A stretch of 64,000 nt of DNA from an uncultured Methanosarcinaceae archaeon (lineage in GTDB: Archaea > Halobacteriota > Methanosarcinia > Methanosarcinales > Methanosarcinaceae), in assembly GCA_963833425.1 (NCBI GenBank), contig CAWHXP010000020.1:63388-127387 (forward strand), written 5' to 3'. The notes beneath the pieces are model-generated. The model saw only the letters and a program-made list of their open reading frames with translations, was not told the origin of the DNA and did not search any database. A program made the position numbers and the translations under genes. The stretch's first letter is position 1. Each line of letters opens with the position of its first letter. Shown in pieces: positions 39,142-58,335 of the stretch.

Positions 39142-39269
39142 ATTAAAGGAGCTGGGTTTAATCCAATTTCCTCCAACTCCCCTCTCTTTTTTGGAAAACC
39201 AATAAATTCAGCGGCTCTACAATATATTTTGTGGGGGCTAGCATACTTTTCTCCCATTGCCATTGAATG
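39142..39269. repeat. right arm of ~125-bp inverted repeat
   Basis: Reverse complement of 37305-37429. Confidence 0.9.
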
Positions 39270-42358: not shown

Positions 42359-42574
42359 ATGGAGAACAAAATAATTCAAATTGGATTATTACTTTTAATT
42401 ATCGGAACTATTTTGATGCCAATTGCAGCTGAATCTGATTTCCCAAATAGTCCAGGTATTTATAATTCAGACGGTAGTAAGAAAAGTTATGCATAGTTCC
42501 ATTCAGAATCAAGTGATTGGAGTAACAAAGTATATGCATGGAACGCAGAACGTGATGCTAAAATGAATGTTTAA
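42359..42574 (+). CDS. small secreted protein with an in-frame TAG at 42494
   Basis: AAGGAG RBS, signal peptide; the frame stays open for 25 codons after the TAG. Confidence 0.4.
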
Positions 42575-42807
42575 TCATAAAAAGAGATAAATAAGCTTGA
42601 GTCATAGTGGATTATGTAACGTACTAAATACATTGAGTCTGGATCTAGCACGTTACCGGACTGACTTTAATTAATGGGTGAAAGATTTTGGGTTAGGGGT
42701 TCCAGAAAAACCCCTACTAAAGGCCGTTTTTCAGATAACATCAAAAATCTCCCATTATTAAGGTCGGTTCTATTTCTGGATCAACTATTAATTTTTCATT
42801 CTATGCT

Positions 42808-43101
42808 TCATTTTATGGTGTTATGGGTTCCGTCATTGTCCCCGTTTCCGTTTCCGTTTCCTATACCTACGTTTCCGTTTCCACTACCGTCTCCGTTTCC
42901 GCTTCCGACATTATTTATTGTGTTTGATTTTCCGCCGAGTCCGACAACGTTCCCGTCTCCGTTTCCGCTAAGAGCACCATTTCCAATAGTTTTAACGTGA
43001 CTAAAACTAACTGAACGACCCTTACCACCAGCGGATGCTGTTGCTGCTGTAAATGCCACTACAAGTGTTACTACCATCAAAAGGACTAATGCTTTCTTCA
43101 T
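42808..43101 (-). CDS. small secreted Gly/Asn-rich protein
   Basis: Signal peptide ending ASA; GNG repeats; AGGAG RBS. Confidence 0.8.
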   Translation of the reverse strand: MKKALVLLMVVTLVVAFTAATASAGGKGRSVSFSHVKTIGNGALSGNGDGNVVGLGGKSNTINNVGSGNGDGSGNGNVGIGNGNGNGDNDGTHNTIK

Positions 43102-43148
43102 TTTATATCGTCTCCTGTGTGTTTATTTTTGTGATTAATTTATGATAT

Positions 43149-44584
43149 TCAGGAACCTAGGGGAGCTACTGGAACGTCACCATAGCCGATAATACCATTT
43201 TTAGTATTTCCGTAACCAATGTCACTGTTACCGGTGTTACCGCTACCGATATCGTTGTTACCCTGGTTTCCGTTACCTATGTTGTTGTTACCATGGTCGT
43301 TTCCAACTCCGCTTGCAGCTACATTGTTTCCGTTTCCACTACCGTTTCCGTTTCCTATATTATTGTTCCCGTTGTTGCTTCCGTTGTTGCTTCCGGTGTT
43401 TCCGTTTCCGTTATTGTCTCCGTTTCCGTATCCTACGTTTCCGTTTCCGTTATTGTTTCCGTTTCCGTCTCCTTTGTTTCCGTTTCCGTTATTGTCTCCG
43501 TTTCCGTATCCTATATTATTGTTCCCGTTCTGGTTCCCGTTTCCGTTTCCGTTGTTTCCGTTTCCGTTTCCGTTTCCGTTGTCGTTACCTTTGTTCCCGT
43601 TTCCGTTTGTGTTCCCGTTTCCGTTTCCGTTGTTTCCGTTTCCGTTTCCGTTTCCGTCATAGCTACCTTTGTTTCCGTTTCCGTTCTGGTTTCCGTTTCC
43701 GTTACCTATGTTTCCGTTTCCGTTTCCGTTTCCATCATGGCTACCTTTGTTTCGTTTCCGTTCTGGTTTCCGTTTCCGTCACCTTTGTTTCCGTTTCCGT
43801 TTCCGTTTCCATCATGGCTACCTTTGTTTCCGTTTCCGTTCTGGTTTCCGTTTCCGTCACCTTTATTTCCGTTTCCGTTTCCGTTTCCATCATGGTTACC
43901 TTTGTTTCCGTTTCCGTTCTGGTTTCCGTTTCCGTATCCGGTATTTACGTTTCCGTTTCCGTTTCCATCATGGTTACCTTTGTTTCCGTTTCCGTTCTGG
44001 TTTCCGTTTCCGTATCCGGTATTTACGTTTCCGTTTCCGTTTCCGTCATAGTTACCTTTGTTTCCGTTTCCGTTCTGGTTTCCGTTATCGTTTCCAATAT
44101 TTACATTACCGTTAACGTTCCCGTTATAGCTGCCGCCGCCTGTCCAGCCGGCATAGTTATGATTTCCGTTTCCGTTTCCGTTCTGGTTTCCGTTTCCGTC
44201 ACCTTTGTTTCCGTTTCCGTTTCCGTTTCCGTTATAACTGCCTAATACACTGTATCCAGCACTGTTATGGTTTCCGTTTCCGTTTCCGTCTCCGTTTCCG
44301 TTTCCGTTCTCGTTGCCTTCGTTTCCGTTCCCGTTTCCGTTCCCGTTAAAACTGCCTACTACACCGTATCCAACATAGTTATGGTTTCCGTTTCCGTCTC
44401 CGTTTCCGTTTCCATTGTAGTTACCTTTGTTTCCGTTTCCGTTTCCGTTTCCGTTATAACTGCCTACTATACTATGTCTAGCACCGTGTCCAGCACTATG
44501 TCCAGCAGCTGCGACGGCAGTTGTTAATGAAATTATAAACCCCAAGACTATCAGTAGGGTCATTGTCTTTTTAATTGTAGTCAT
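43149..44584 (-). CDS. secreted Asn-Gly repeat protein, ~478 aa after restoring one base near 43752
   Basis: Signal peptide and (GGAAAC)n repeats. The span is 1436 nt, and adding 1 nt gives 479 codons ending YGDVPVAPLGS*. Confidence 0.85.
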
Positions 44585-44704
44585 AGTTATCCATCATTTC
44601 AATGATTATTCTAGATTGTCCCCATCATTAGAATGGTTTCCTCCCATCAATGAAATGATGGGTTCATATCGATTTATGTAATTTATGTTGGGAATTCAAC
44701 TTCT

Positions 44705-45040
44705 CTATTGCCAGCCATTCCCGTTTCCGTTTCCATTCCCGTTTCCGTTTCCTATGTTCCCGTTTCCATTCCCGTTTCCGTTTCCTACGCCGCGATTTCT
44801 ATAACCATTGCCATAGCCGTTACCTTCGCCGATGTTTCCATAACCATTGCCATATCCATTACCATGACCGTCTCCATCATGGCCTTCACCATAGCCATAG
44901 CCATAATGCCGAATGAGATGGCTGCCTATGCCATGTACGCCGCCATTGGCACTTGCAATAGCAATTGTTAATGAGAGTAATACTCCCATCACAATCAAAA
45001 GAGTCGTTGTCTCTTTCCCGTTCCTAGTTGATTCCGTCAA
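44705..45040 (-). CDS. small secreted Gly/Asn/Tyr-rich protein
   Basis: AGGAG RBS, TTG start, signal peptide, GNGYG and GNGN repeats. Confidence 0.8.
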   Translation of the reverse strand: MTESTRNGKETTTLLIVMGVLLSLTIAIASANGGVHGIGSHLIRHYGYGYGEGHDGDGHGNGYGNGYGNIGEGNGYGNGYRNRGVGNGNGNGNGNIGNGNGNGNGNGNGWQ

Positions 45041-45158
45041 TACAAACTCTCCTTAGTATACACTCGTAAGTAACGTGTGTCTTATTGTTAGTTCACTATG
45101 GGAGCTTGATGCTATCTGGTGTGCATTTACATGCAAATATAATCACAATTCTATATTT

Positions 45159-45420
45159 CTTAACATTTCCGTCCTGAAAAATAGTTTCTAAACAAAAATT
45201 CTGCTCAAAAAAAAAGTTTCGAAATTATTGAAGTTTTATCTATCTTAGTATATTCTGAACCTAACAAAATTTTCGCCGTCTAATTTATTCCTTAACATTT
45301 CCGTCTTGAAAAATACTCCTTTATCAAAAGTTTTGCTCCAAGAAAAGTGTTCGAAATTAGTGAAATTTTAACTATCTTAGTAGATTACGAAACCAGCCAA
45401 AATTTCACTGTCTAACACTA
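45159..45420. repeat. 132-bp tandem duplication upstream of the Asn-Gly operon
   Basis: CTTAACATTTCCGTCyTGAAAAATA at 45159 and 45291. Confidence 0.8.
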
Positions 45421-45621
45421 TTAAATTTATTTCATCTTGATATTGTTATATACCATGTTACTAATTGTTATTTGTCAGGTGGGTTTTTCATTGTCTTCCT
45501 ACCTGTCCCCTTAGTTTGGGTAAAACTACTGCATCAGTGACTACATATCCCCCTGGACTTAAGTTCACCTTAATCCAGGAGGATACTTTTATACAGAGTT
45601 TTTGTGGTAAAATCTATGGAA
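45389..45621 (+). repeat. ~230-bp non-coding two-hairpin unit ending in a 31-bp site (copy 1)
   Basis: Direct repeat of 47022-47255; site ATACAGAGTTTT-TGTGGTA-AAATCTATGGAA at 45591-45621. Confidence 0.85.
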
Positions 45622-46132
45622 CAAGGAAATCTAAAAATCCTGTTTTTTAATAAAAGAAAAGAATGAGAATAATCATCTTTACAGAACTTTTAATACATTA
45701 CCATTTAATCAGAATAAATAGCAAAGGAATTCATTTAATTGTTCTTTGACTGTGAAATATTTAATGCGGCATTATTTTTTTTTTAGAAACTTTTTTTCGT
45801 ATCATTAATTTAAAATAATTACGGTGGCAAAAATGAACATCACCAAGCATGTATATCATCAGCACATAAAATGATAATAGAATGTACAACACCACATCCT
45901 TTCAGAGATAAATTTAGATGATTAATTGGTAAACCGATGATTCAGTACTTATGAAGACGCGGTTATTTCAAAATCAGCATCCTTAAAATTGTATGGAATT
46001 GAATAAAAATAAGTGTATAATTAATAGGAAAACAAACATTTGATACAACAAAAAATGGGACTGAGTATTTTAATAGTAATCTTTTTTTGTAGTTATCCTT
46101 AAGCATTAAATATCTGAAAAGACACTGAGAGA

Positions 46133-46837
46133 TTGAAAATGAACGAAGTTCAATGTGATAAAGCAAGTAGAAAGCATACAATCATAACTGTTTTAGGAAT
46201 CACTGCACTGGTGCTTTTAATGCTAGTGAGTATCACAACCGCCTGGACGTCAGAATCAAAAATTTGGATCAATACAGGAAACGAGCTAAGCAACTTAAGC
46301 AAGTATAATGAAGCCATAAAAGCATATGACAAAGCAATTGAAACTGATCCCCAGTATTCAGATGCTTGGATCATGAAAGGCCTTGCTTTATTTAATTTAA
46401 ATAAGTTTGATGAAGCAATAACAGCATATGACAAATCAATTGAAATTAACCCGCAGAATTCACGGGCTTGGAACAATAAAGGGTTTGCTCTATATAACTT
46501 AAATAAATTTGATGAAGCAATAACAGCATATGACAAATCAATTGAAATTAACCCGCAGAATTCACTAGCTTGGACAAATAAGGGAGATGCTCTACTAAAA
46601 TTAAGTAAGTACAATGAAGCAATAATGGCCTATAACAAAGCACTTGAAATTAACCCGCAGAATTCAATGGCTTTGAAAGGCAAAGAAGCTTTATCTAATA
46701 CTGGACAACCGGCATCTCAAAGTACTGGCCAACCAGAGTATTGGAGTACTGGACAACCAGAATATTGGAATACTGGACAACCGGTATCTCAAAGTACTGG
46801 ACTACCAGCGTACTATAATCCAGTATTAGGGCTTTAA
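46133..46837 (+). CDS. secreted TPR protein with C-terminal TGQP repeats
   Basis: Hydrophobic leader, four TPRs, 8-aa TGQPxxxS repeats. Confidence 0.88.
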   Translation: MKMNEVQCDKASRKHTIITVLGITALVLLMLVSITTAWTSESKIWINTGNELSNLSKYNEAIKAYDKAIETDPQYSDAWIMKGLALFNLNKFDEAITAYDKSIEINPQNSRAWNNKGFALYNLNKFDEAITAYDKSIEINPQNSLAWTNKGDALLKLSKYNEAIMAYNKALEINPQNSMALKGKEALSNTGQPASQSTGQPEYWSTGQPEYWNTGQPVSQSTGLPAYYNPVLGL

Positions 46838-46979
46838 TTTAATAAATCCGGTATGGGACTTTATTTTAATCTAACAGTAACAATTTAGGTTTTTATTATT
46901 CAGTGATTTCATTAAAACATATATATTTAGCCTATATTTAGATAAGAATGCCCTTACAATTTAGATTGAAACTGAAAAA

Positions 46980-47010
46980 ATACATAGTTTTTGTGGCAAA
47001 ATATCTGCAT
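46980..47010 (+). repeat. 31-bp palindromic site copy
   Basis: ATACATAGTTTT-TGTGGCA-AAATATCTGCAT. Confidence 0.75.
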
Positions 47011-47021
47011 TTTTGGGTCAT

Positions 47022-47255
47022 GAAACCAGCCAAAGTTTCACTGCCCAACACTATCAAATTTAATTTATCTTGATACAGTTATATATTATGCCCCTGATTG
47101 TTATTTGTCAGGTGGGTTTCTCGTTGTCTCCCTACCTGCCACCATAGTTTGGGTAAAACTATTGCATCATCGGTTATATATCCCCCTGGACTAAAGTTCA
47201 CTCCATCCAGGGGGATATATCTTGATGCATAGTTTTTGTGAGAAAATCTATGTAT
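47022..47255 (+). repeat. ~230-bp non-coding two-hairpin unit ending in a 31-bp site (copy 2)
   Basis: Perfect 15-bp stem at 47176-47190/47206-47220; site ATGCATAGTTTT-TGTGAGA-AAATCTATGTAT at 47225-47255. Confidence 0.85.
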
Positions 47256-47536
47256 TATACTCATTTTTCAGCCGAACTTATGGAATATTTTACCTGATTG
47301 TGCAAAAAATAACAATTTTTTAATTAAAATATATATTACATTAGAAAGCAAAAAAGTTGCTATATTTATCTCTTTGAGGGGAAACAATGAATAAAAATTA
47401 AAAGCATATCCGAAAAGTCAAGAATAGCATGTTGGAAAAAATTATAATAGGTCTATAATATCCGAATCTCCATTCTGATTGTGCACATTGCTTATTGTAA
47501 CAACTACAGCAGATCACAAAACTTTTCGAATTGGCT

Positions 47537-47764
47537 CTAAAACAGTTCGATAAACTCTTCAGGTGTCAAGCCTGACTGCCTGATTATTGACTGCAAAGTT
47601 CCAACAGGAATTTCATTATAGTCAGGGATAATGACTATACGTGTTTCTTCCGAGGTTTTCTTTTTCATTTTGATGTGGCTGCCCTTTTGTGAAACCACCT
47701 TAAATCCCTGGCTATTGAGACCTTTTATAATCTCACGTGCTGACAGTATCGGAAGCTTTGTCAT
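47537..47764 (-). CDS. hicA: HicA family toxin
   Basis: GFKVVSQKGSHIKM...IPVGTLQSIIRQSG. Confidence 0.9.
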   Translation of the reverse strand: MTKLPILSAREIIKGLNSQGFKVVSQKGSHIKMKKKTSEETRIVIIPDYNEIPVGTLQSIIRQSGLTPEEFIELF

Positions 47765-47975
47765 GGGAAACCTCAATTATTGTGGTAAGGATCGAGCCTG
47801 CAGCAGGGATTTGAACATCTTCATCATCAAGATAAAGTTCTACAGCCTCTTTAAGGTTATCAATCGTTTTTTCAATAGTTTCCCCCTGGCTTGCCACGTC
47901 AAGTTCTGGGCACCATGATACGTACCATTTCCCTTCTTTATGGATTACTGCTGAAAACTTATAGGTCTCTTGCAT
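47733..47975 (-). CDS. hicB: HicB family antitoxin
   Basis: YVSWCPELDVASQGETIEKTIDNLKEAVELYL; overlaps hicA. Confidence 0.9.
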   Translation of the reverse strand: MQETYKFSAVIHKEGKWYVSWCPELDVASQGETIEKTIDNLKEAVELYLDDEDVQIPAAGSILTTIIEVSHDKASDTVST

Positions 47976-48078
47976 ATATGAAAAAAGGTTGTATGCGCTA
48001 TTAAAGATTTTCTCAAATACCATGTATTTTGAGAAAGTAATCATATCAGCGCTCATGGCTTACAAAACTGATATTTTA

Positions 48079-48109
48079 ATGCACAGCTTTTGCTATAAAA
48101 CCTATGCAT
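48079..48109 (+). repeat. 31-bp palindromic site copy
   Basis: ATGCACAGCTTT-TGCTATA-AAACCTATGCAT. Confidence 0.8.
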
Positions 48110-48245
48110 TCGTAAAAAAGATAAACTCCTATTTTTTGTGGCAAAGAAAGGAGTATAGAGTCGATCAGGAATTATAGAACTTTAGGTACACTGTCCTAAT
48201 TAAAAGTAGATAGCAAGCAAGTTTTTTGAATTTTGCTATGCTTTT

Positions 48246-49847
48246 TTAATATTTTTTCTGTATTCTTGAGCGTATGAAGCCACCAATTACTGTAGCAACA
48301 ATACCACATGCTACTGGAAATAATGGGTGTTTAAACATTGACTCTTCTTTAACAGTTAGTGTAAAAGCAGATGATGTGCTAGGTTTGAAGTTATTATTAC
48401 CAATATATTGGGCTGTGATTGAATGTGCGCCAACTGAAAGTGATGAAGTAGTCAAAATTGCCTGTCCAGAATTTACAGTTTCAGTTCCTATTTGTGTGTT
48501 CCCGTCTATGAAAGTAACGGTACCCGAAGGTTTTTCTGTTCTTTGTGACGTCGTATCAATTTTGGCAGTAAATGTTATTGGCTGGCCAGATATATACTCA
48601 TTAGCCGAAGAAGTTACAGCAGTTATTGTATCCAACATAGGATTCTCTATTCGAATAGGTTGTAGTTCTAAATCAGACTGATTTAGAATCATTAGTGTTA
48701 AAATAGATGATGTGCTGGGTTTGAAATTATTATCACCGATGTATTTGGCTGTAATTGAATGTGCACCAACTAAAAGTGATGAAGTAGTCAAAATTGCCTG
48801 TCCAGAATTTACAGTTTCAGTTCCTATTTGCGTGTTCCCATCTAGGAAAGTAACGGTTCCAGAAGGCTTTTTCACTCCTTGTGACGGCGTGCCAATTTTA
48901 GCAGTAAATGTAATTGGCTGACCAAATGTAGATTTATTGGTTGGTGAAGTTAACTCAGTCATTGTATCTACAAGATTCTCTACGTAAATAGGTTGTGGAT
49001 CTATACCAGGCTGATTTATTGTTAGTGTAAAAGCAGATGATGTGCTAGGTTTGAAGTTATTATCACCGATGTATTTGGCTGTAATCGAATGTGAGCCAGC
49101 TGAAAGTGATGAAGTAGTCAAAATTGCCTGTCCAGAATTTACAGTTTCAGTTCCTATTTGCACGTTCCCGTCTGTGAAAGTAACGGTACCTGAAGGCTTT
49201 TCTGTTTCTTGTGAGGTCGTATCAATTTTAGCGGTAAATGTTATTGTCTGGCCAAATGTATATTGATTTGCCGAACAAGTTAATTCAGTCATTGTATCGA
49301 ACTTAGATTCTATATTAGATAAACCACTTTTGCCTTTCAAGGCTATTGAATCTTGTGGGTTAATTTCAAGTGCTCTGTCATATGCTTTTATGGCTTCATC
49401 TGATTTCCCTAATTTACTTAAAGCTAAGCCTTTGCCGTCCAAAGCTATGGAATCTTGCGGGTTAATTTCAAGTGCTTTGTCAAACGCTTCTAGTGCTTCA
49501 TTATGTTTGTTCAATGCAACGAGAGCAACCCCGTTACGATCCAAAACTTCTGAACCCTGTGGGTTAATGTTAATTACTCTTTGATCTGGAGAAAGTGGGG
49601 AAGTAGCCATAAAATGGCCATGTGCAATAGGGTACTGTCCTACTTTTACTTTGCTTGTAAATGTATTAGTTGCTGTGTCAATTACAGGGACAGTTTCATC
49701 TTTTAAGTTTGTAACGTATGCATATTGCGGTGCAGGTGAGTTACTTTGTGCAGTAACTACAGATACCATGGACATAATGATCATTAAAAATAAAAAATGG
49801 ATTATTAAAACTGAATAAATTAGAAATGATTTTTCCGATTTTTTCAT
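48246..49847 (-). CDS. surface protein: YVTN blade, TPRs, three Ig-like domains, C-terminal membrane anchor
   Basis: YAYVTN; EAIKAYDRALEINP; three GQxITFTA...GTVTF...HSITAxYxG repeats. Confidence 0.9.
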   Translation of the reverse strand: MKKSEKSFLIYSVLIIHFLFLMIIMSMVSVVTAQSNSPAPQYAYVTNLKDETVPVIDTATNTFTSKVKVGQYPIAHGHFMATSPLSPDQRVININPQGSEVLDRNGVALVALNKHNEALEAFDKALEINPQDSIALDGKGLALSKLGKSDEAIKAYDRALEINPQDSIALKGKSGLSNIESKFDTMTELTCSANQYTFGQTITFTAKIDTTSQETEKPSGTVTFTDGNVQIGTETVNSGQAILTTSSLSAGSHSITAKYIGDNNFKPSTSSAFTLTINQPGIDPQPIYVENLVDTMTELTSPTNKSTFGQPITFTAKIGTPSQGVKKPSGTVTFLDGNTQIGTETVNSGQAILTTSSLLVGAHSITAKYIGDNNFKPSTSSILTLMILNQSDLELQPIRIENPMLDTITAVTSSANEYISGQPITFTAKIDTTSQRTEKPSGTVTFIDGNTQIGTETVNSGQAILTTSSLSVGAHSITAQYIGNNNFKPSTSSAFTLTVKEESMFKHPLFPVACGIVATVIGGFIRSRIQKKY

Positions 49848-50536
49848 TATCTCTAACCTTTTTATTATTTATATTTATAGATAAATCTCAGAATTTTCCA
49901 CCAGTTAATACGTAGAAATTAATTACGTAAAGACACGGAAAAATCAATTTGCTATTTATTATTCACTTGCTTTCCAGTATCATGGAATATAAGTAAATTA
50001 GATATAAAGGTTCACATTAGAATATAACAAAAATGCATCACAAACATAATGTATATTATGAGATTTATATAATTTTCTATTTGAATATTAAGGATATTAA
50101 ATTAAATCTTAAAATTCTTGATATAATTTAACAATGGCTTATGTAAAGACATCTTCAAGATTAATCGTTGTCTACAACTTTGTTCTGCATTTCTGTCAGC
50201 AACAGTAGTTGATGCGCTATGAACTGATTTCCCGCCGATGTCATTCCAGTTTTCACAATTATTTCTGCTATTGTTTTTCTGAAACTGTTTGCTAATTCTA
50301 AACTACTCTTCGCGCACATCTTCAAAAGAATACCATTAAATCCGGAAGACTCCACAAATGATAAAAAATCATTATTGATACTGAAATTTTTTTTGATTAT
50401 AAAAATTATCATGTGGGATTATTCTTTAAACAAAATATCTTTTTCCTATGAATATGTTATAATAAGTTGCTGCAGTTGTGAATACATTGCAGGGATCTTC
50501 TCGTGGTTGTCTTGATTCCTGCACCTATACTAAAAG

Positions 50537-50758
50537 TTAAATTTTTGTTCCAACCGGAATGACTGCAACTCCAAAAGGACCGGTTCCTACGGAAACTGTT
50601 TTTATTACTTGGTTAGTTAAAGTGTCAATTACAGAGACAGTATTGCTTCCATAGTTAGTAATATATGTATATGGCGCTGCACTTTCAATACTTGTCAGCA
50701 TTAAAATCATAGCTGCTGAAACTAAGGCTATAGAATACAACTTGTGTTTATTTACCAT
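50537..50758 (-). CDS. short secreted protein with one YVTN repeat (possible fragment)
   Basis: YITNYGSNTVSVIDT...VGTGPFGVAV. Confidence 0.7.
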   Translation of the reverse strand: MVNKHKLYSIALVSAAMILMLTSIESAAPYTYITNYGSNTVSVIDTLTNQVIKTVSVGTGPFGVAVIPVGTKI

Positions 50759-50994
50759 TTATTTTACCCTTCTGGAAAGCAATACATATGGGAGTTAAAT
50801 TATTAATAGAAATATTTAACAATTAATAGTCACTTAGAACTATAAAAACGTATTTAAAAATGTAAAAGCAAATGTTAAATTTAAAAGAATATCTGTAGAA
50901 AGCAATTATTTAATGCAGTCATTTTGATAAAAACTATTTATCATTCTCTAAATTCGACTCAAAATATCCTATAATTCCAGCTGAAACTGAGAAA

Positions 50995-51025
50995 ATGCAT
51001 AGGTTTAGATACAAAAACTATGCAT
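50995..51025 (-). repeat. 31-bp palindromic site copy
   Basis: ATGCATAGGTTT-AGATACA-AAAACTATGCAT. Confidence 0.8.
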
Positions 51026-51466
51026 TTGATGAAGGCATGAGTATTATTCCTAAATTATAATATACATAATTTGTATTTAATTATTGTTCAGTGTTAAAAC
51101 ATTCCATTTGGAAATACTTTTTGTTTAGAAACTATTTTTTTTATAAATACATATACATAATAAATCAGAGTGATGTTACATACCAGTCAAAAACAGAGTT
51201 TATTGAATCTCTCTAATAAATTAATTAACTAAGATAAAATCAAAAGCTTATGATGTGGATTATAGATCTGTGTGAGAATGAAAAATATACCCAGTTCAAC
51301 AACATTTGATACCTTCTCCGTTAATATTAAAAACATTTTATTCAATAAACTCTAGTTTTTGGCTGGCTATTCAATAGATTATATAAAATATATTTAGTTA
51401 ACAATGATTCACAGCAGATATGATCTAAATTTTTGTGTTGTGAATTTGATAAAAGGAGTGAAATAA

Positions 51467-51841
51467 ATGTTAAAACAATCACCTAGTAAAATGAAAAAGA
51501 TACTGGCTGTTCTGCTGGCAGTTCTTTTCGTAGTATCCTTGACAGCAGTGTCAGCTAGTGCATTCCAACGCCATAATATGGGCGGTGGTATGGGCATGCG
51601 TGGCGGTTTTGGTCACCACGGTTTTGGCGGCGGTTTCGGTGGTGGCTGGGGCGGTGGTTGGGGCTGGCCTGGCTGGGGCTGGGGCTGGCCTTACATGGGT
51701 TATGGCTATCCAGGCATGGGTTATGGGTATCAACAACCCATGGAACAACCCATGATGCAACAAGAACAACCAGTTGTTAAAGAAGTTGTCAAAGAAGTTG
51801 TTTGCTGCCCACCGAATTCTGTAAAAAAATATGTTAAGTAA
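51467..51841 (+). CDS. secreted Gly/Trp-rich low-complexity protein
   Basis: AGGAGTG RBS; MLKQ...KKIL signal; GGGW/GWP repeats. Confidence 0.8.
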   Translation: MLKQSPSKMKKILAVLLAVLFVVSLTAVSASAFQRHNMGGGMGMRGGFGHHGFGGGFGGGWGGGWGWPGWGWGWPYMGYGYPGMGYGYQQPMEQPMMQQEQPVVKEVVKEVVCCPPNSVKKYVK

Positions 51842-52164
51842 TGAGTGGTAAAAGTAGATTCAATTTTGGAAATAATCAATTAAAAATTTATAAATACTGA
51901 AGAGAATTTTAAATAAATCTCAGTTTAGGGGTTGTGCTTTATAAAACCTACATAAGCAATTTATTACAAATCGGAGATTTATTGAATTCTCTATATTTTA
52001 GTTTTGTTTAGAGCTCTATACAATTATTTTTCTGATATCTTCTTTTTAGGATTGTAGTTTATATTAGTTCCAGATGTTCCATAAGCTCCATCTGTTCTAT
52101 AAGTCCCATAAGCTTCAAGAAGTAACAGAACTTCAATTTTTTTATTCCAAAAAGAGCTTAGGAA

Positions 52165-52195
52165 ATCCATAGATTTAATCACAAAAACTATGCAT
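52165..52195 (-). repeat. 31-bp palindromic site copy
   Basis: ATCCATAGATTT-AATCACA-AAAACTATGCAT. Confidence 0.8.
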
Positions 52196-52252
52196 GAAAA
52201 AGTAGAAAATAGTGAGAATTTGGATAAATCTAAATTTCAGGAAGAGCCCCCA

Positions 52253-52471
52253 TCATTTTATTGAGCCTGGGACACCTGAATTTCCGTAACCGTCATCAAG
52301 GCCATCGTTACCGACACCGTTATTGAAGCCGAAGTTACCGTAACCGTTATCGTGCGCGCCACCGTTTGCCGGGGTGACTGTGGGGGCACTGTGTCCACTG
52401 TGGCTACTAGCGACAGCTATTGTTGTTGTAGCTAAAGAAACTACAAAATAAGCTGTTATCAAAATTACCAT
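52253..52471 (-). CDS. small secreted protein with GNxG repeats
   Basis: Signal peptide, SSHSGHS, then NGYGNFGFNNGVGNDG. Confidence 0.65.
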   Translation of the reverse strand: MVILITAYFVVSLATTTIAVASSHSGHSAPTVTPANGGAHDNGYGNFGFNNGVGNDGLDDGYGNSGVPGSIK

Positions 52472-52823
52472 TGTCCTTTTAAATCCAATTTATATTACAC
52501 CTCATTCTTTATATTGGAACTGATTTCTAATCTACTTAGAATTGTATATAAAGCCCAATTTTTAGTTTTTTGCCATAAAACAAATTTCTCTTCAATTACC
52601 CAGTATATTCACATATCTTACCGATCAGCCCCTACTTTTAAACTCTTTAACTCTTTGTCTGGTAGCTTTAAGCTACAAAGTAAAATATTATTCACAACAT
52701 TATTTTAAATAAACTGTCAAAAAAATAGTTTCGGAATACAATTAATTTCCCTATAAAATATTTTAACATCAAACAATATTTTTATATTAATGTTATTTAT
52801 AATAATTTTATTTGGTCTTATTG

Positions 52824-52854
52824 ATGCATAGGTTTTATAGCAGAAACTATGCAT
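52824..52854 (-). repeat. 31-bp palindromic site copy
   Basis: ATGCATAGGTTT-TATAGCA-GAAACTATGCAT. Confidence 0.8.
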
Positions 52855-52874
52855 CTGATGTTAGTTGATGCCTT

Positions 52875-53110
52875 TTATTTTTCTATTAATATGAACTTCA
52901 TAGTGAATTTCATCCTATTGTCCCTTTTCAAGTCAAGTTCCCATCTAATTGATCTACACGGGTGCTACCAGCCGAAATCCAAGACGATTAAGATCTTCAA
53001 TTTCAAAGTTATCTGGAATACTCACTCCGTTATCTGAGACCTTCAAGGTAAAACTGGTGTTCTTAAAACCATCTTTTTTGTTTTCTTCTCATGAAGAATG
53101 AGTTTATTCA
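52875..53110 (-). pseudogene. histidine kinase HATPase C-terminal remnant, paralog of the 8774 kinase
   Basis: SFTLKVSDNGVSIPDNFEIEDLNRLGF...MKFILIEK*; DNA is homologous to 8774-9010. Confidence 0.8.
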
Positions 53111-53478
53111 GTACTAAAAAGATATTCAAAACAGGGAACTCTCTTGTCGTCGTTGTTCACAGAGTTAATCTGAAGGTATCATTTACAGCTTTTTGTTAGA
53201 ATCACTATCAATTGATGACATCGAAAATAAATTGAATATTTTACGGCTAGAGGAAACTATATTTGAAATCAAAGAATAATAAATCAGAAACGAAAAAATC
53301 GGATCAAATATAGGAATTGGTGAGAAAGATTTAAACAAAATTCTCACGAAGAAAAAAATAAGAGGTAAATTGAAATCCCCTTTATGCTCTACACATTTAA
53401 AGCTTTGAAGATAGATACTATAAATCAACATAGATTATCTTTCAATTAAATCCAGTTCAATATGGGGTTGATGAAAGG

Positions 53479-54132
53479 ATGGCACTTTTTAAAGATAGGC
53501 TAGATGCTGGTAGAAAACTAGCAAAAAAACTTTCAAAATATGCAAACCGCTCAGATATACTTGTACTTGGACTTCCGAGGGGTGGAGTTCCTGTAGCTTT
53601 TGAAGTTGCAAAGGAACTGAATGTAAAAATGGACGTTTTTGTAGTAAGGAAATTAGGTGTTCCAGGAAATGAAGAGTTGGCAATGGGAGCGATTGCTTCT
53701 GACAATATTATTGTGCTGAACGAAGATATAGTGAGATCTTTCCATATATCTAAACAGGTAATTGACGCTGTAGCTGCTAGAGAACTTAGGGAATTAGAAC
53801 GTAGGGAACGTATTTACCGAGGTAAACGTCCAAAACCAAGTATAAGTGGTTCAACAGTAATTTTGATAGATGATGGGCTTGCAACGGGTGCAACAATGAG
53901 CGCAGCTGCTTCAGCTATTAAAACTAAAAATCCGACTAAAATAGTTATTGCAGTTCCAACTGGTGCACCGGATACTTGCAGGTCTTTTGAAGGAAAGGTA
54001 GATGAAATTATATGTGTTTCTACTCCGGAACCTTTCTATAGTGTAGGGGCTTGGTACGAAGACTTCGGGCAAACTACCGATGAAGAGGTTTGTGAATTAC
54101 TGGACAAAGCTACAGATTTTCAATCGAAGTAA
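53479..54132 (+). CDS. phosphoribosyltransferase family protein
   Basis: FKDRLDAG, GLPRGGVPVA, ILIDDGLATGAT. Confidence 0.9.
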   Translation: MALFKDRLDAGRKLAKKLSKYANRSDILVLGLPRGGVPVAFEVAKELNVKMDVFVVRKLGVPGNEELAMGAIASDNIIVLNEDIVRSFHISKQVIDAVAARELRELERRERIYRGKRPKPSISGSTVILIDDGLATGATMSAAASAIKTKNPTKIVIAVPTGAPDTCRSFEGKVDEIICVSTPEPFYSVGAWYEDFGQTTDEEVCELLDKATDFQSK

Positions 54133-54181
54133 TACTTACAGTAAATTTGCTATTCATAAGTAACTTATTTGGGGGTTCAAT

Positions 54182-54853
54182 ATGACAGAATCATCAAGCA
54201 ACGGTAAAAACAATAGTGAGGTTCGAATCCCAATTAATTCGATCGTTCTTGAAGGAAACCTTGTTATTCCTGAAGGAGCACATGGAATTGTGGTCTTTGC
54301 ACATGGCAGTGGGAGCAGTCGTCACAGCTCACGGAATAAATATGTTGCATGGGAACTTCAGAAAAAAGGCTTTGGAACACTATTATTTGATTTGTTGACA
54401 GTCGAAGAGGAACGAATTGATATGGTAACAGCTCATCTAAGGTTTGATATTGACTTGCTTGCAAATCGGCTTGTTGATGTTACAAACTGGCTTTTAATAA
54501 ATCCTGTTACTGAAAATTTTAACATCGGTTACTTCGGTGCCAGTACAGGGGCAGCGGCTGCGCTTATAGCTGCAAAAGAGAATTCTAATGTTGTAAAAGC
54601 AGTTGTTTCCAGAGGGGGGCGGCCTGATTTAGCTGAAGAAGCTCTTCCTTATGTAAAAGCACCAACACTGCTTATTGTGGGTGGCAATGATTTTCAAGTC
54701 ATAGGTATGAATCAATGGGCATTTGAAAGATTAACTATAAAAGAAAAAAAACTCGAGATCGTCCCGGGTGCAACTCATCTTTTTGAAGAATCTGGGACTT
54801 TAGAGAAGGTTGCATATCTAGCAGGAGAATGGTTTAAAAGATACCTTATGTAA
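54182..54853 (+). CDS. dienelactone hydrolase-like alpha/beta hydrolase
   Basis: FAHGSGSSRHS, GASTG nucleophile elbow, GATHLFEE. Confidence 0.9.
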   Translation: MTESSSNGKNNSEVRIPINSIVLEGNLVIPEGAHGIVVFAHGSGSSRHSSRNKYVAWELQKKGFGTLLFDLLTVEEERIDMVTAHLRFDIDLLANRLVDVTNWLLINPVTENFNIGYFGASTGAAAALIAAKENSNVVKAVVSRGGRPDLAEEALPYVKAPTLLIVGGNDFQVIGMNQWAFERLTIKEKKLEIVPGATHLFEESGTLEKVAYLAGEWFKRYLM

Positions 54854-55119
54854 AATATAGAATATTTGATATGCATAGCAGAGCGTTTGAAAGTGGTGCG
54901 ATTGAAAATTTCAGTGGGCTTATTTTTATTAACTATCGGCGCAGGATAGTGTTTTAATTTTTCAGTTAGTTAGTAATTAAAAGTATCTATTGTATAAAAA
55001 TAAATAGCTGTTAACTGATTTTTGGTAGGTTTAATAGTTATGGGGAATCCGAAAAATAGGAATGTTTTGTTAGAAATCTCGCCATATCGAGATTATTGAC
55101 CCTGGGAGCTATTGTGATT

Positions 55120-55170
55120 CTAATTATTAGGTGCAATGCAGCTAAGAAACATCTATAGCTCTTTTGTAAT
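55120..55170 (-). pseudogene. hdrB: hdrB 5' remnant
   Basis: KEL*MFLSCIAPN directly after hdrC resembles the FLGCxxPN N-terminus of HdrB. Confidence 0.5.
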
Positions 55171-55180
55171 ATTTGCTCCC

Positions 55181-55666
55181 TCATCTTTCAGCTATCAATT
55201 CGTCAAATTTACAAATCTTGAGAAGGATTTTCAGTTCTTCGAGAGCTTCTGGACACTTCTGCACAGTCTCGGGTATAGGTTCAAGTCCTAGTTCTTCTCT
55301 TTTTTTCATTGTTTCTTCGTCTAGAGGAACGGCATGTCCGCGTTCCATCACCATTTCTGCAACTTTCCGGTGTTCAGGTAGTATTAAACCTTCTCTGACT
55401 GCAAGTCTTCGGAGATTAAGAATTGTATCTGTGATTGGTATTCCGCGTGGGCAGCGCTCCTGGCAGGTATAGCAAGTGGTGCATAGCCAGAGGTTATCAT
55501 CTGAGAGGACAGTTACCCTATTTTTTGCTGCGTCCCTAATAATTCTTCGGGTATTGAATCCGGTATTCCATCCAGACGGACAGCTTCCTGTGCATGTTCC
55601 ACATTGCATGCATGAAAGCACATCAAGACCTGAAGCCTTTAAAGCTTTTTGTATTTCTTCACTCAT
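55181..55666 (-). CDS. hdrC: CoB-CoM heterodisulfide reductase subunit C
   Basis: CMQCGTCTGSCPSG, LWLCTTCYTCQERCPRG, GHAVP. Confidence 0.93.
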   Translation of the reverse strand: MSEEIQKALKASGLDVLSCMQCGTCTGSCPSGWNTGFNTRRIIRDAAKNRVTVLSDDNLWLCTTCYTCQERCPRGIPITDTILNLRRLAVREGLILPEHRKVAEMVMERGHAVPLDEETMKKREELGLEPIPETVQKCPEALEELKILLKICKFDELIAER

Positions 55667-56037
55667 ACAGGTTCACTGCTTTGGTTTGATATAAATTAAT
55701 TCATTTTAGAAAAATAAACGTAGATCTAAGTATTTTTGATTGGTAATAAGGATTTTATGGAAGTGGATTTGGATAGCCAAAAGGAAAAAACCGGAAAAAG
55801 AAAGGTCATATTCAATAGAAAATTATAGAATAATGATAATATAAAGTTAACGAAGAATGTTTGCAGAAACCCTATGATTTGCAAAATTTAAATCGAAAAG
55901 CCGATGCTTGTATCTACTGAGCTAAAGACTCACGGGTTTTACGCTTCTTTATATAAATTAGTAGGAAAGAGCAATGTGCTCATCGAAAAAAATTGTTTTC
56001 CTACAAAGTACACCCAAATAAATCAAGGTTTAGTGGT

Positions 56038-56400
56038 TTAATAATAATATGGGGGTGTTGGGGGTGTGCCTGGAGACGGTGGTGATCCTGGTGAGCCCGG
56101 TGAGCTTGGGGATGCCGGTGAGCTTGGAGACAGTGGTGATCCTGGTGAGCCCGGTGAGCTTGGGGATGCCGGTGAGCTTGGAGACAGTGGTGATCCTGGA
56201 GATCCCGGTGAGCTTGGAGACAGTGGTGATCCTGGAGATCCTGGATATGGGTATGCCCCCATAGCTGGAGATATGCCTGCATCTGAGGATAGTGGTGTAA
56301 TAGTTGCATACACAGTTGTAGTGATCACTGACGTTACAAAAAAGAATAATAACAACAAAATTAGTATCTTTCCAATACTAGCAAATTTTTGTTTATCCAT
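56038..56400 (-). CDS. secreted Ser/Pro/Gly-rich repeat protein
   Basis: MDKQ...KIL signal; SPx triplet repeats; GAGG RBS. Confidence 0.8.
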   Translation of the reverse strand: MDKQKFASIGKILILLLLFFFVTSVITTTVYATITPLSSDAGISPAMGAYPYPGSPGSPLSPSSPGSPGSPLSPSSPASPSSPGSPGSPLSPSSPASPSSPGSPGSPPSPGTPPTPPYYY

Positions 56401-57063
56401 TTATTTTTCCTCTTGGTTATATAATTTAGAATGAACGTTATGTTAATTTGCAGTTATCTTCATCTATTTGTGCCTTTTATTCAACGAATTTTATTTTGTT
56501 TATTTTTTAAAACTTAGGTAGTTGACGAATGGAATAAAGTACATGCAACCTCTTCATTTTAATTGTGATTCAAACGATTAAGTGCTTAGTGATTCTTTTT
56601 TTCAGTTTAACTGCGTAGATTCTAATTTTGTTACACCTCAGTGCAATTTAACTGTTTTAATATTGTGTTTAATACACCCAAAAGCAAGATTAAATTGGAA
56701 TTTTCATCTAAAATGATATCAACTACCTATATAATAGAATAATGTTTTTCTTATATAAGACATTTTGCTTTTTTTTATACACTTTGTTTGTAGTCATCGC
56801 ATGAATTAAATGCACTTTTTAACCATATAGGTATAGGACAAACTTTTGAGCGTTTCTAGCTTCCTTTATATTCTATATCGAATGAGAAAACGAAAACCCT
56901 TATCCAACTCTTAACCACATAAAAACTATAGTAGCACGAAAATTTTGGAACTATGATTTATTTTTTCCTTATTTTCTGTGATGTTCTTCTGATTTTTATA
57001 GATGTTTTCGGAACTGAAGAGATTTGCAAACACTGCATGAAAGGATAAATTAATATATATCTG

Positions 57064-58032
57064 ATGGTTTTTTGCATTAAGTTTTTACTGCTTCATAGCC
57101 GGGTTCCGTATAATTCCATGATAGGGGTATCAGATTTGTTACAGAAGTTCCGAAAAATCCAGCGGGTCCTTGTCTATGTATTAATTATAAATATTGTAAT
57201 ATCACTTGCAAAAATTATTTATGGGACTCTTACAGGTGCTTTAAGTATGGTTGCAGATGGCTATCATTCTCTTTTCGATGGCGTCTCTAACATTATAGGC
57301 TTGGTTGGAAGTTTTATGGCATCCCGCCCACCGGATAAAGATCATCCTTATGGGCATCAGAAATATGAGACCATAGCTTCTTTTTTTATCGCATTACTGC
57401 TGATCTTTGTGGGAGTTGAAATTTTCAAAAACGCTTTCAATAGTTTCCTTATCCCAAACAAGCCCGAGGTTACAATTGTAAGTTTTCTCGTAGTAATTGG
57501 GACAATGGGTGTTGCATATTTGACCATGAAATATGAGCATAGACAGGGGCAATATCTCAGAAGCCAGGTGCTTATAGCGGATTCTATGCATCTGAAGAGT
57601 GATATTTACATCTCTTTTTCGGTTATAGTGAGCCTTGTTGCCATGAAGTTAGGTCTTTCCATAATTGACCCTATAGTTGCTTTAATTATCTCTTTTATAA
57701 TTTTCAAGACGGGATACAGAATTATAAAAGAGACATCTAGATCCCTTTTAGATATGTCCAGAATTGAAGAAAAGGAAATATGTGAATTGGTAATGAAAAT
57801 TGATAAAGTAAAAGGCTGTCATAAAATTCGGACACGTGGAAGTATGGGGGATATCAAGGTCGATATGCATCTGCTTGTTCAATCTGGCATGTCTCTTGAA
57901 GATGCCCATATTCTCTCTCACAAGGTTAGCAAAAAGCTGAGGGAAGAATATAGAGATATTTCTGATGTTGTTGTACATCTTGAACCCACCTTACAACAAC
58001 ATCAAGAATCAAATAGCAAAAAAACCAGTTAA
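57064..58032 (+). CDS. cation diffusion facilitator (FieF-like); true start probably ~57118-57136
   Basis: ADGYHSLFD, HPYGHQKYE, ADSMHLKSD, VVVHLEP. Confidence 0.92.
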   Translation: MVFCIKFLLLHSRVPYNSMIGVSDLLQKFRKIQRVLVYVLIINIVISLAKIIYGTLTGALSMVADGYHSLFDGVSNIIGLVGSFMASRPPDKDHPYGHQKYETIASFFIALLLIFVGVEIFKNAFNSFLIPNKPEVTIVSFLVVIGTMGVAYLTMKYEHRQGQYLRSQVLIADSMHLKSDIYISFSVIVSLVAMKLGLSIIDPIVALIISFIIFKTGYRIIKETSRSLLDMSRIEEKEICELVMKIDKVKGCHKIRTRGSMGDIKVDMHLLVQSGMSLEDAHILSHKVSKKLREEYRDISDVVVHLEPTLQQHQESNSKKTS

Positions 58033-58119
58033 GATGTATGGAAGGAAATGTTTTCAGGTGTGTATTTTGGATTACTACACTGGTTAATCTCACTGTCTTA
58101 CCACAATTATTGAGATTTA

Positions 58120-58335
58120 GGGGTGTAGAAGGTTAATCCAAGAAATAAATCTCAAATATGCTCAGGTTGCGGTTAAATTGTTAAAAAAATTATTGGAAAG
58201 AACACATAGTTGTCCTTTCTGTAGTCTTGTTCTTAATCGAGATCATAATGTTTCTACTAACATTTTCAGATTGGGATTACAATTTGTTCGTAAAATTGAT
58301 AGATATCTCTCACTTTCGTGAGGGAAGTAGTCGCA
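58120..58335 (+). pseudogene. tnpB: IS200/IS605 tnpB 3' remnant with right end
   Basis: VNPRNKSQICSGCG*...ERTHSCPFCSLVLNRDHN. Confidence 0.75.

Follow-up and report, generated by a model that had tools for sequence, protein, structure and literature searches.

The region around 52 kb of the window (the whole 64,000-nt stretch analysed here, from an uncultured Methanosarcinaceae archaeon) contains two direct 31-nt copies of a quasi-palindromic site, at 52165-52195 and 52824-52854, that are 81% alike, lie 659 nt apart from start to start, and enclose a segment of 628 bp. The features of this region are:

50995-51025, + strand: site copy; likeness to the contig of the closest species ends at its right edge
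51467-51841, + strand: 124-aa Gly/Trp-rich ORF with a signal-peptide-like N-terminus
51996-52164, - strand: copy of the dispersed repeat module A; homology to the family spans 51996 to 52195-52200
52165-52195, + strand: site copy, sequence ATCCATAGATTTAATCACAAAAACTATGCAT, with a left arm of module-A type
52253-52471, - strand: 72-aa orphan ORF with a hydrophobic N-terminus, the remainder Gly/Asn-rich
52583-52809 (core 52700-52809), + strand: AT-rich dispersed repeat, independent of the site
52824-52854, + strand: site copy, at which 92%-identical synteny with the closest species begins
52855-53095, - strand: frameshifted histidine-kinase 3' remnant (about the last 80 codons) with single-base gaps
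53096-53385, no strand assigned: ~290-bp dispersed repeat that truncates the kinase remnant, with ~100 genomic matches at 68-78%

The flanking sequences quoted in the initial annotation are present, with CTTAGGAA leading into the site at 52165-52195 and CTGATGTTAGTTGAT following that at 52824-52854. The module A copy encodes a truncated form (…LMGLIEQMELMEHLELI*) of the 26-aa micro-ORF of its family. The 72-aa ORF belongs to no Pfam family and has no relative among 5.8 billion proteins in the size range 39-126 aa, and the DNA in which it lies (52196-52582) has no match among 58 congeners; the 124-aa ORF has sub-threshold Pfam matches only, and an Rfam scan of the whole window at gathering thresholds gave no matches. 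We considered whether the AT-rich repeat is linked to the site and rejected this, as only four of its 78 genome copies have a site just past the distal end. The kinase remnant is a pseudogene because there are single-base gaps within its coding part, and the ~290-bp repeat that truncates it is also present at the orthologous place in the closest species. Short contigs from four public sequencing runs match the repeats and diverge at site edges; in these four runs, contigs bridging 52195 and 52855 are absent and transcription is shown for no part, and we base no conclusion on them. Twenty-one public runs contain at most a tenth of the sampled words.

Structure and distribution of the 31-nt site

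The site is composed of 12-nt inverted arms (ATGCATAGrTTT and AAAnCTrTGCAT) around an asymmetric 7-nt centre, and the logo derived from 123 copies begins with ATGCATAG and ends with CTrTGCAT. Allowing at most one mismatch, the 11-mer AAACTATGCAT occurs 20 times in the window (3.1 expected, with nine in the largest shuffle), and a 29-nt pattern gives 23+23 hits in the genome and none for the reversed control. A site HMM identifies 246 genome loci at E<10, and we treat the 144 that score 15 bits or more as good copies. All except two of these 144 lie outside ORFs of at least 90 aa, which make up 47% of the genome, and 110 have a neighbour within 6 kb, where random placement gives 49 on average and 70 at most. 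The arrays are gene-sized, with a median site spacing of 1.9 kb, and adjacent sites are predominantly co-oriented (62/82 pairs, p 3.7e-6); we note that orientations, flank families and ORFs were all called with crude custom scripts, and that orientation calls for a near-palindrome are noisy.

The 29-nt pattern has 46 hits in this genome and 38, 34, 29 and 22 in four congeners, with none in the reversed controls, and is lacking from 29 of the 58 congeners. It has no hits in 16 genomes of other families and no exact matches in viral contigs, and a search of 185,579 species genomes recovers 35 loci, nearly all of them titled Methanosarcina or Methanosarcinaceae. As judged from these pattern counts, the motif is confined to one Methanosarcina clade, and because the site-rich genomes are close kin, agreement among them is not independent evidence. 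A word search of the literature, which was not exhaustive, found no description of the motif. Absence from most of the genus is not odd for clade-specific accessory genes.

Modules attached to the sites and linkage of their arms

Module A, a dispersed repeat of ~200 bp, invariably has a site at its end; one query collected 32 copies, and HSPs occur at about 40 loci. The site ends 47 nt before the ATG of the micro-ORF, and in the 52-kb copy the family homology stops at 52195-52200. A general layout consisting of the 3' end of a secreted-protein gene, a site and module A was considered and set aside, as the far side of 21 module-A sites varied. Genes are also attached to sites elsewhere in the window, including a toxin–antitoxin pair:

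47225-47255, - strand: site copy downstream of the hicA/hicB pair, from the profile search
47537-48056, - strand: HicA toxin (E 2.9e-16) and HicB-like antitoxin (weak, E 0.005) pair
48079-48109, - strand: site copy 22 nt upstream of the hicB start, from the profile search

The hicA/hicB pair fits exactly between these two co-oriented sites, and a paralogous hicBA pair elsewhere in the genome has the identical arrangement of site, 22 nt and ATG. Several kinase paralogs have a site ~20 nt past the stop codon. Among 92 inter-site segments, two families recur with sites at both ends, and one of these is present at three places with outer flanks that differ on at least one side.

The 287 site flanks fall into 29 families, and these pair combinatorially across sites, forming a mosaic of repeat families whose junctions the sites occupy. 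We compared the 637 site pairs that share a flank family on one side only, and find that the arm proximal to the shared flank has an identity of 0.845 against a baseline of 0.757 (z 6.2) and the centre 0.572 against 0.514 (z 4.0), with the distal arm at 0.752 against 0.760 (z -0.5). Inheritance ties each arm to the adjoining flank alone, and since the far arm does not follow that flank, the site is a hybrid in which two half-sites have been joined at the centre.

Comparison with the closest species (G019) shows 92% identity from the site onward (window positions 52822-58158) and unrelated DNA on its left side, and the likeness likewise ends at the edge of the site at 51025. Of the 26 sites listed for G019, four fall where a conserved block ends. 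One site-bearing insertion of 3 kb in G019 is located between 14-bp direct repeats and not at a site, and therefore other mechanisms move such DNA too. In addition, an IS6-type end lies 10 nt from the G019 site orthologous to that at 52824, and the synteny break there may therefore owe something to an IS6-type element. IS6-type ends were rejected as a cause of the junctions, being within 150 nt of only 10 of the 144 sites; the genome contains 292 matches to such ends and at least 70 copies of a 282-bp IS6-derived fragment.

Proposed exchange points and alternative readings

We propose that the sites are a lineage-specific dispersed quasi-palindrome marking exchange points of intergenic and accessory DNA in a Methanosarcina clade, a reading to which we give a probability of about one half. 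The initial annotation saw the site as the footprint of cassette integration or excision; we retain its suggestion of an exchange point in this general form, but not the pairing of an empty with a filled site. Hybrid sites would form when DNA is broken within the 7-nt centre or at its borders and then rejoined, and an arm-recognising protein would perform this in trans, as at the core sites of tyrosine recombinases. The 52-kb locus may then be seen as three junction-bounded pieces placed side by side: module A with a half-site, the orphan 72-aa ORF with an unrelated AT-rich repeat, and the kinase pseudogene. From the arrangement of its bounding sites, the 628-bp segment might in principle move as a circle, by excision or insertion. 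For annotation, such exchange points would account for half of the genome being a non-coding mosaic, and for synteny between close species stopping at 31-mers.

Several observations stand against this proposal. A recombinase or transposase gene adjoining the sites is not the rule, and just two of the 92 inter-site segments act as clean movable units. The centres differ, as the initial annotation had observed, with TATAGCA the commonest (31/123) and the others diverse, and classical tyrosine recombinases tolerate diverse centres poorly. Homologous recombination within the 31-bp repeats could also yield the hybrid-arm pattern.

By analogy with known systems, the motif is best read as marking recombination junctions, in a way similar to the sites of pdif modules, integrons or BIMEs. 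Xer/dif-type sites have two ~11-bp inverted recombinase-binding arms and a 6-8 bp centre with strand exchange, and the sites described here have a comparable ~30-bp layout of arm, centre and inverted arm (12-7-12, with the arms inherited with their own flanks). As in pdif systems, small accessory modules including toxin–antitoxin pairs lie between sites, the same module occurs in different contexts, and an enzyme acting in trans need not be encoded nearby. The differences are that the sequence is unrelated, that the copies number in the hundreds and lie on an archaeal chromosome, that no Xer-type gene is linked to the sites, and that neighbouring sites are mostly co-oriented, whereas the pdif (Xer) modules of Acinetobacter plasmids are flanked by oppositely oriented sites. 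An integron array begins with attI and a tyrosine recombinase of the IntI type, its co-oriented sites separate small ORFs that mostly lack promoters and share one orientation, and its attC sites are roughly 55-140 nt long, contain paired inner and outer repeats, and fold as single strands. The likeness to integrons, chromosomal superintegron repeats included, consists of arrays in which imperfect palindromes share an orientation and are spaced a gene length apart between small orphan genes and toxin–antitoxin pairs, of repeat homology that ends at the crossover point, and of sites that are hybrids of two partners. However, the site falls outside the length and folding of attC, at 31 nt and with no sign of a folded single-strand substrate; its arrays have no integrase, attI and promoter platform beside them (14 places matching PF00589 tabulated), are many and scattered rather than one, and contain genes on both strands.

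Tentatively, the sites may be the 31-nt cores (12-7-12) of an archaeal cassette-exchange system in which a trans-acting recombinase, working in the centre of the site, builds and reshuffles co-oriented arrays of small accessory genes in a clade of peat Methanosarcina. It would be integron- or pdif-like in its working and unrelated in site structure, with toxin–antitoxin pairs, orphan secreted proteins and micro-ORFs as its cargo. A candidate enzyme is a putative 378-aa tyrosine recombinase encoded on a 1.25-kb multi-copy element, copies of which (at least 85% identical) are found only in the five most site-rich genomes; the link of tyrosine recombinases to the sites is this co-occurrence in one clade only. 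The ends of the 1.25-kb element contain nothing site-like. There are 15 genome matches to PF00589, and among the 14 places tabulated one is located 300 bp from a site, as part of a multi-copy ~6-kb element. If the sites are recombination cores, they would provide a methanogen with a simple, sequence-defined mechanism for shuffling small accessory genes, and would represent a natural archaeal system of two-site recombination that might serve as a genetic tool in Methanosarcina.

We consider it rather unlikely that the site is a selfish palindrome of the REP/BIME type, i.e. a non-autonomous 31-mer with short adjoining modules that is copied in trans by a transposase, either of a single-strand HUH/Y1 RAYT-like kind or another. 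On this view, insertion beside older copies and homologous recombination between copies would produce the junction effect and synteny breaks as by-products. The site does have the character of a short (20-40 bp), extragenic, high-copy palindrome (144 copies, 142 of them outside ORFs of at least 90 aa) with a conserved internal mismatch at positions 9/23, it has multiplied in lineage-specific bursts, and it is located at rearrangement end points. It also forms mosaics with other short motifs, as do enterobacterial BIMEs. The genome has 24 matches to Y1_Tnp (PF01797), and there is a slight excess of sites near gene 3' ends, with 47 gene ends within 300 nt of sites pointing toward them and 21 away. 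Yet none of the 22 Y1_Tnp places tabulated adjoins a good site: 21 have no site within 1.4 kb, and at the remaining place a match of 10 bits lies 237 bp from a degenerate site fragment. More generally, no RAYT, TnpB or integrase lies beside the sites as a rule, and no RAYT is flanked by copies of the site; a single-copy RAYT could be missing because the assembly is only 80% complete. REPINs are doublets of inverted copies some tens of bases apart; the site lacks such doublets, the sole pair within 300 nt being co-oriented, and the hairpins formed by its AT-rich single strands have little stability (-2.5 to -8 kcal/mol). At the paired arm positions 3/29 and 6/26 the bases vary independently, with no compensatory change and no selection for a hairpin, and in an element that is copied whole each arm would not track a different flank. 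REP palindromes are described (PMC3733652) as having a conserved GTAG or CGTC tetranucleotide at one end, and neither is present in the site. On such a modest reading the motif would be a REP/BIME-like junction repeat in an archaeon; REPINs are undetected in archaea according to a preprint (10.1101/2021.07.10.451892).

The neighbourhood of the sites is rich in MITEs and IS-derived fragments, which abound in this genome; the ~290-bp repeat at 53096-53385 is one example. MITEs have terminal inverted repeats at both ends, a target-site duplication, and ends shared with a resident IS, but in module A and the other flank families just one end bears the motif, and the search for a transposase gene with such ends found none. 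Half-site matches outside full sites are more numerous than in the reversed control (231 vs 81), and those inspected resembled degenerate or variant full sites; no transposase gene or IS was found between inverted half-sites. IS200/IS605-derived (PATE-like) elements share sub-terminal hairpins with resident TnpA/TnpB elements. The tabulated Y1_Tnp matches are not beside sites, and nor, on comparison of positions by eye, are the 13 TnpB-domain matches listed, most of which are short fragments.

There is a smaller chance, which we regard as quite low, that the site is a cis-regulatory palindrome (an operator, bidirectional promoter core or terminator) multiplied by duplication along with small transcription units such as the micro-ORF, hicBA and small secreted proteins. 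The fixed distances to the micro-ORF ATG in module A (47 nt), to the hicB ATG in two paralogous pairs (22 nt), and from the stop codons of several kinase paralogs (~20 nt) are consistent with this, and the independent variation of the arms would suit the half-sites of a dimeric binder. The centre of the site (TTTTATAGC / GCTATAAAA) resembles, read either way, what we take to be the consensus of the archaeal TATA box. However, site orientation is unrelated to the direction of the flanking ORFs (59 toward and 40 away on one side, 51 and 48 on the other), the median distance from site to ORF is 330-530 nt, and most complete genomes of the genus have few or no copies of the motif, which is odd for a regulator site. 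Regulation also gives no account of repeat homology stopping mid-site, or of synteny breaking there.

The 8.7-kb locus and its resemblance to the 52-kb locus

A second combination of module A, site and kinase is located near the left end of the window:

8620-8717, - strand: module A copy, comprising its 9-bp periodic part and the stretch to the site, with ~40 genomic matches
8718-8752, + strand: degenerate 35-nt site copy with four extra bases in its right half
8774-11614, - strand: intact histidine kinase (MEDS-PAS-PAS-PAS-HisKA_2-HATPase) with its stop codon 21 nt from the site

The initial annotation regarded this locus as an unoccupied site and the 52-kb locus as the same junction after integration of a ~660-bp cassette. 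The two share an order of parts (module A, site, at 52 kb the 628 bp and a further site, and a kinase 3' end), and a deletion between the direct sites at 52 kb would restore the 8.7-kb layout. The homology claimed for the right flanks is real, with 52844-53104 matching the 8.7-kb kinase at 80.8% over 265 nt, but the remnant is no nearer to this kinase than to those of four other species (81-84%). The left-flank similarity is statistically significant (70.5% over 112 nt, E 1.7e-6) but not specific to the two loci: positions 8629-8739 match ~40 genomic loci at up to 81%, with the 52-kb copy among the weakest at just 70.5%, and the pairing of the two flanks is outscored by 43 of the 65 other HSPs of the 52-kb flank and by 48 of the 55 others of the 8.7-kb flank. 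Both left flanks are copies of the dispersed module A, each with many nearer relatives elsewhere, and neither their proposed kinship nor the designation of the 8.7-kb locus as the empty form is borne out.

In the closest species the kinase remnant and its site are present, the sequence on the left is different, and there is no empty form at the orthologous place. The initial annotation asked whether the 52196-52823 unit occurs in other contexts; it exists once, and neither its own genome nor the 58 congeners contain it again as a unit. We therefore hold it very improbable that the two loci are the unfilled and filled states of one junction; the 8.7-kb locus is a look-alike assembled from other copies of the same repeats. 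Flank likeness in a repeat-rich genome cannot be taken as locus homology.

Neither an empty allele nor a second copy of the 628-bp segment was found in these genomes. The degenerate site at 8718-8752 is missed by the site HMM at E<10, and its hairpins fold no better than shuffles (z -0.4 and -0.1). The sequences quoted for this locus are present in the order given, with CTTAGGGA to the left of the site and CGGATATTAGTTGAT to its right.

The 31-nt site

An HMM built from seven copies of the 31-nt quasi-palindrome in the window finds 246 loci in the genome at E<10, 144 of them with at least 15 bits. The logo of 123 copies, each exactly 31 nt, runs A-T-(G/A)-C-A-T-A-G-r-T-T-T-T, then through an asymmetric centre to A-A-A-A-a-C-T-r-T-G-C-A-T; there are thus two inverted arms of 12 nt, in which the mismatch at 9/23 is conserved, and a centre of ~7 nt, where a conserved C18 makes the site directional. 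The variable positions of the arms, 3/29 and 6/26, are mutually independent, their observed and expected counts being equal, and single strands form weak hairpins (-2.5 to -8 kcal/mol); neither the hairpin energies nor these positions give a sign of selection for base pairing.

All but two of the 144 sites (142) lie outside ORFs of at least 90 aa, which by a crude call (non-overlapping, ATG-started) cover only 47% of the assembly (80% complete, 21 contigs), and the sites are oriented independently of the ORFs next to them. ORFs, flank families and orientations were derived with simple scripts of our own. Much of the non-ORF DNA is a mosaic built from numerous families of short repeats. The genome also holds a 282-bp IS6-type fragment (the type end plus the first transposase codons; for example C15:31033-31313 of the same genome and window 17229-17509 and 19940-20224) with at least 70 copies at ~77-93% identity, mostly at least 84%; the IS6-type end motif has 292 genome matches versus 12 in a reversed control.

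With up to one mismatch allowed, the pattern matches this genome 46 times and four congeners 38, 34, 29 and 22 times; the remaining congeners have at most nine matches, and 29 of the 58 have none. Reversed-pattern controls give 0 throughout, as do 16 genomes of other families and the viral contigs searched. A search of 185,579 species genomes returns 35 pattern loci, nearly all titled Methanosarcina or Methanosarcinaceae MAGs, and the motif is lineage-specific. Our literature searches, which were not exhaustive, found no description of it.

Hybrid sites, combinatorial flanks, arrays and synteny breaks

Around the 144 sites, the 150-nt flanks make up 29 families (module A, a ~200-bp dispersed repeat ending in a site, with 21 flanks; two related families of ~85-130 nt with 29 and 20; and others) that pair combinatorially across sites. 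The most telling test of the site as a junction is the linkage of its arms to these flanks, measured over 637 site pairs that have a flank family in common on one side only.

Arm identity in site pairs sharing one flank, against a label-shuffled baseline
Arm next to the shared flank: identity 0.845, baseline 0.757, z 6.2
Centre: identity 0.572, baseline 0.514, z 4.0
Far arm: identity 0.752, baseline 0.760, z -0.5

An arm is thus inherited together with the flanking DNA on its side, and the site is a hybrid joined in the centre. Module A illustrates this: the module side of its sites tends to ATTCAkAG… or ATCCATAG…, with the ordinary …CTrTGCAT on the other side. Homology within the module A family runs from 51996 to 52195-52200, the outer edge of the site. 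Module A also contains a micro-ORF of 26 aa (window 51996-52164; 32 genomic copies aligned; consensus MELMGLIEHMELMEHLELINLNHNHK followed by a stop) built of 9-nt (three-codon) repeats, with indels in multiples of 9 and codon entropies of 0.87, 0.48 and 0.71 at positions 1, 2 and 3, position 2 being the most conserved. Eight of the 32 copies run uninterrupted from M to stop and four more remain open; the others have an altered start, internal stop or frameshift, and the window copy is truncated.

The sites occur in clusters: 110 of the 144 have another one within 6 kb (random mean 49, maximum 70). Sites lie 1.9 kb apart at the median, and of 82 pairs of neighbours 62 are co-oriented (p 3.7e-6). 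The arrays lie among small accessory genes, namely putative pairs of nucleotidyltransferase/HEPN-like and RelE-like genes (names given on visual inspection of the translations), small secreted low-complexity proteins and IS fragments; a HicA/HicB pair lies exactly between sites 47225 and 48079. It is one of two paralogous pairs (window 47537-48056 and C3:547568-548038 of the same genome), and in both the site ends 22 nt before the hicB start codon, so any promoter must overlap the site. Window regions 40116-45040 and 51467-52471 hold a run of small ORFs (72-292 aa) with signal-peptide-like N-termini, extreme low-complexity bodies (His/Gly-, Asn-Gly- or Gly/Trp-rich) and no above-threshold Pfam match; other site-rich regions hold similar genes. 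Only 2 families among 92 inter-site segments recur with sites at both ends: a 642-bp non-coding unit in three places, where all left flanks differ and on the right one copy differs and the other two are alike for ~2 kb further, and a unit of ~800-860 bp in two places.

Within window 33001-53000, matches of at least 85% to G019, the closest species, are confined to 39429-39649 (86%), 48198-48968 (93%), 49431-50332 (89%) and the last 179 nt from 52822 (91%), where a 92%-identical block begins that reaches at least 58158. A weaker match stops at the right edge of site 51025. Across 14 G019 loci, a conserved block ends at 4 of the 26 sites listed, and at one of the four our genome retains only the final …ATGCAT.

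Proposed exchange at the site and alternative explanations

Hybrid sites, combinatorial flanks, co-oriented arrays and synteny breaks at sites are all features of this genome, and the more general proposal of the initial annotation, that the 31-mer is a place of DNA exchange, is supported by sequence comparison both genome-wide and across species. Exchange would occur between site copies, within the 7-nt centre or at its edges, and the neatest fit would be a protein binding both arms and cutting either side of the centre; in the core sites of tyrosine recombinases the arms are bound and the cuts lie on either side of the centre. A circle with one site could insert into a resident site and give a directly repeated pair, as at 52165/52824, and repeated insertion of this type would give co-oriented arrays. 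The diversity of the centres (the form TATAGCA makes up 31 of 123) and the scarcity of clean movable units (2 of 92 segments) speak against a dedicated enzyme, and there is as a rule no recombinase beside the arrays (14 tabulated PF00589 places, one of them 300 bp from a site). A similar gradient could arise by homologous recombination within 31-bp repeats, in which case some residual far-arm linkage would be expected.

The 378-aa tyrosine recombinase gene that is the sole content of a 1.25-kb multi-copy element (C8:240539-241784 of the same genome) is a candidate for the enzyme, as a lead and not as evidence. The element has at least five further copies, several at contig ends, and nothing site-like at its ends. 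Copies of at least 85% occur in exactly the five most site-rich of 59 genomes searched, and elsewhere among them there are only more distant relatives; as the five are close kin, this co-occurrence cannot count as independent. A 405-aa integrase family is the poorer fit, one site-rich genome having no full-length close copy.

In working principle the site is nearest to Xer/pdif modules and integron cassettes, and in look and distribution to REP/BIME repeats; it differs from both the REP/BIME and the integron classes in at least one tested defining feature. A selfish palindrome of the REP/BIME kind would fit the copy number, extragenic position, lineage bursts and mosaic, but in a repeat copied whole, the two arms would not each go with a different flank, and we consider this explanation unlikely. 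There are moreover no compensatory changes in the arms, no inverted doublets among site pairs, and no Y1 gene flanked by sites among the places tabulated in this 80% complete genome. REP palindromes are described as having a conserved GTAG or CGTC tetranucleotide at one end (PMC3733652), a tag that is absent from the 123-copy logo. Somewhat less probable again is a regulatory palindrome, which would account for the constant distances between site and gene (47 nt before the micro-ORF ATG, 22 nt before the hicB ATG and ~20 nt past kinase stops) but leaves the orientation data, the mid-site end of homology and the synteny breaks at sites unexplained.

The 8.7-kb and 52-kb loci

The initial annotation had also read the 8.7-kb locus as an empty site and the 52-kb locus as the same junction filled by a ~660-bp cassette, drawing on sequence facts that are correct at both loci.

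Features of the two loci
8718-8752: 35-nt imperfect palindrome, …CTTAGGGA before and CGGATATTAGTTGAT after
8774-11614, minus: 946-aa kinase (Pfam MEDS, PAS, HisKA_2, HATPase), its 3' end beyond CGGATATTAGTTGAT
52165-52195: site, directly preceded by …CTTAGGAA
52253-52471, minus: 72-aa ORF between the two sites
52583-52809: AT-rich repeat between the two sites; 78 copies in the genome, present across the genus
52824-52854: second site, direct repeat of the first, then CTGATGTTAGTTGAT
53096-53385: dispersed repeat of ~290 bp, ~100 genomic matches at 68-78%

This literal reading is wrong, both 'homologous' flanks being repeats, and is contradicted by the left-flank BLAST scores, in which each copy has closer kin elsewhere. 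The 52-kb left flank is not unique DNA but the last ~170 bp of module A (51996-52198), and the two left flanks match about 40 loci in the genome. They match each other at 70.5% over 112 nt (48 bits), whereas the 8.7-kb copy is outscored by 43 of the 65 other HSPs of the 52-kb flank (best 77% over 141 nt) and the 52-kb copy by 48 of the 55 other HSPs of the 8.7-kb flank (best 81% over 116 nt). Left flanks of a copied locus would be expected to be mutual nearest kin, at ~81% as on the right.

On the right, 265 nt beyond CTGATGTTAGTTGAT share 80.8% identity with the 3' end of the 8.7-kb kinase; single-base gaps interrupt the coding part, so this is a pseudogene remnant of ~80 codons, ending at ~53096 where the ~290-bp repeat (perhaps a MITE, with no relation to the IS6-derived 282-bp fragment) cuts in. 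The match is not diagnostic of the locus: other paralogs in the genome have a site ~20 nt beyond the stop codon and match, site included, at 78% and 75% (a flank family of 5), and four other species have kinases with 81-84% identity to the remnant. The G019 orthologue keeps the remnant and its site, and also the ~290-bp repeat, with a quite different left side; no empty allele of the 52-kb locus is seen in that species. The 8718-8752 copy is degenerate, is not reported by the site HMM, and forms a hairpin no better than those of shuffles.

The sites at 52165 and 52824 are 81% alike and point in the same direction. The 72-aa ORF between them matches no family in a Pfam scan and has no DNA relative in its own genome or in those of 58 congeners; a search of 5.8 billion proteins gave no relative of 39-126 aa. 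Only 4 of the 78 copies of the AT-rich repeat have a site just past the distal end, and the repeat is therefore independent of the site. Locus L035 of G019 (G019:C104, 1806-3384) has the part order of window 51996-52854, namely module A, site, minus-strand small secreted-protein gene, AT-rich repeat and site; its gene differs from the 52253-52471 ORF, being His-rich and resembling window 40116-40544, and at only 70-74% identity the two loci are paralogous copies, not orthologues. A true empty/filled pair, not at a site, is provided by G019 locus L038 (G019:C101, 5069-8088), where a 3-kb insertion containing a 110-aa secreted-protein ORF and one site lies between 14-15-bp direct repeats (…TCATTTACAAA…), and our genome is uninterrupted (C3:30347-30361).
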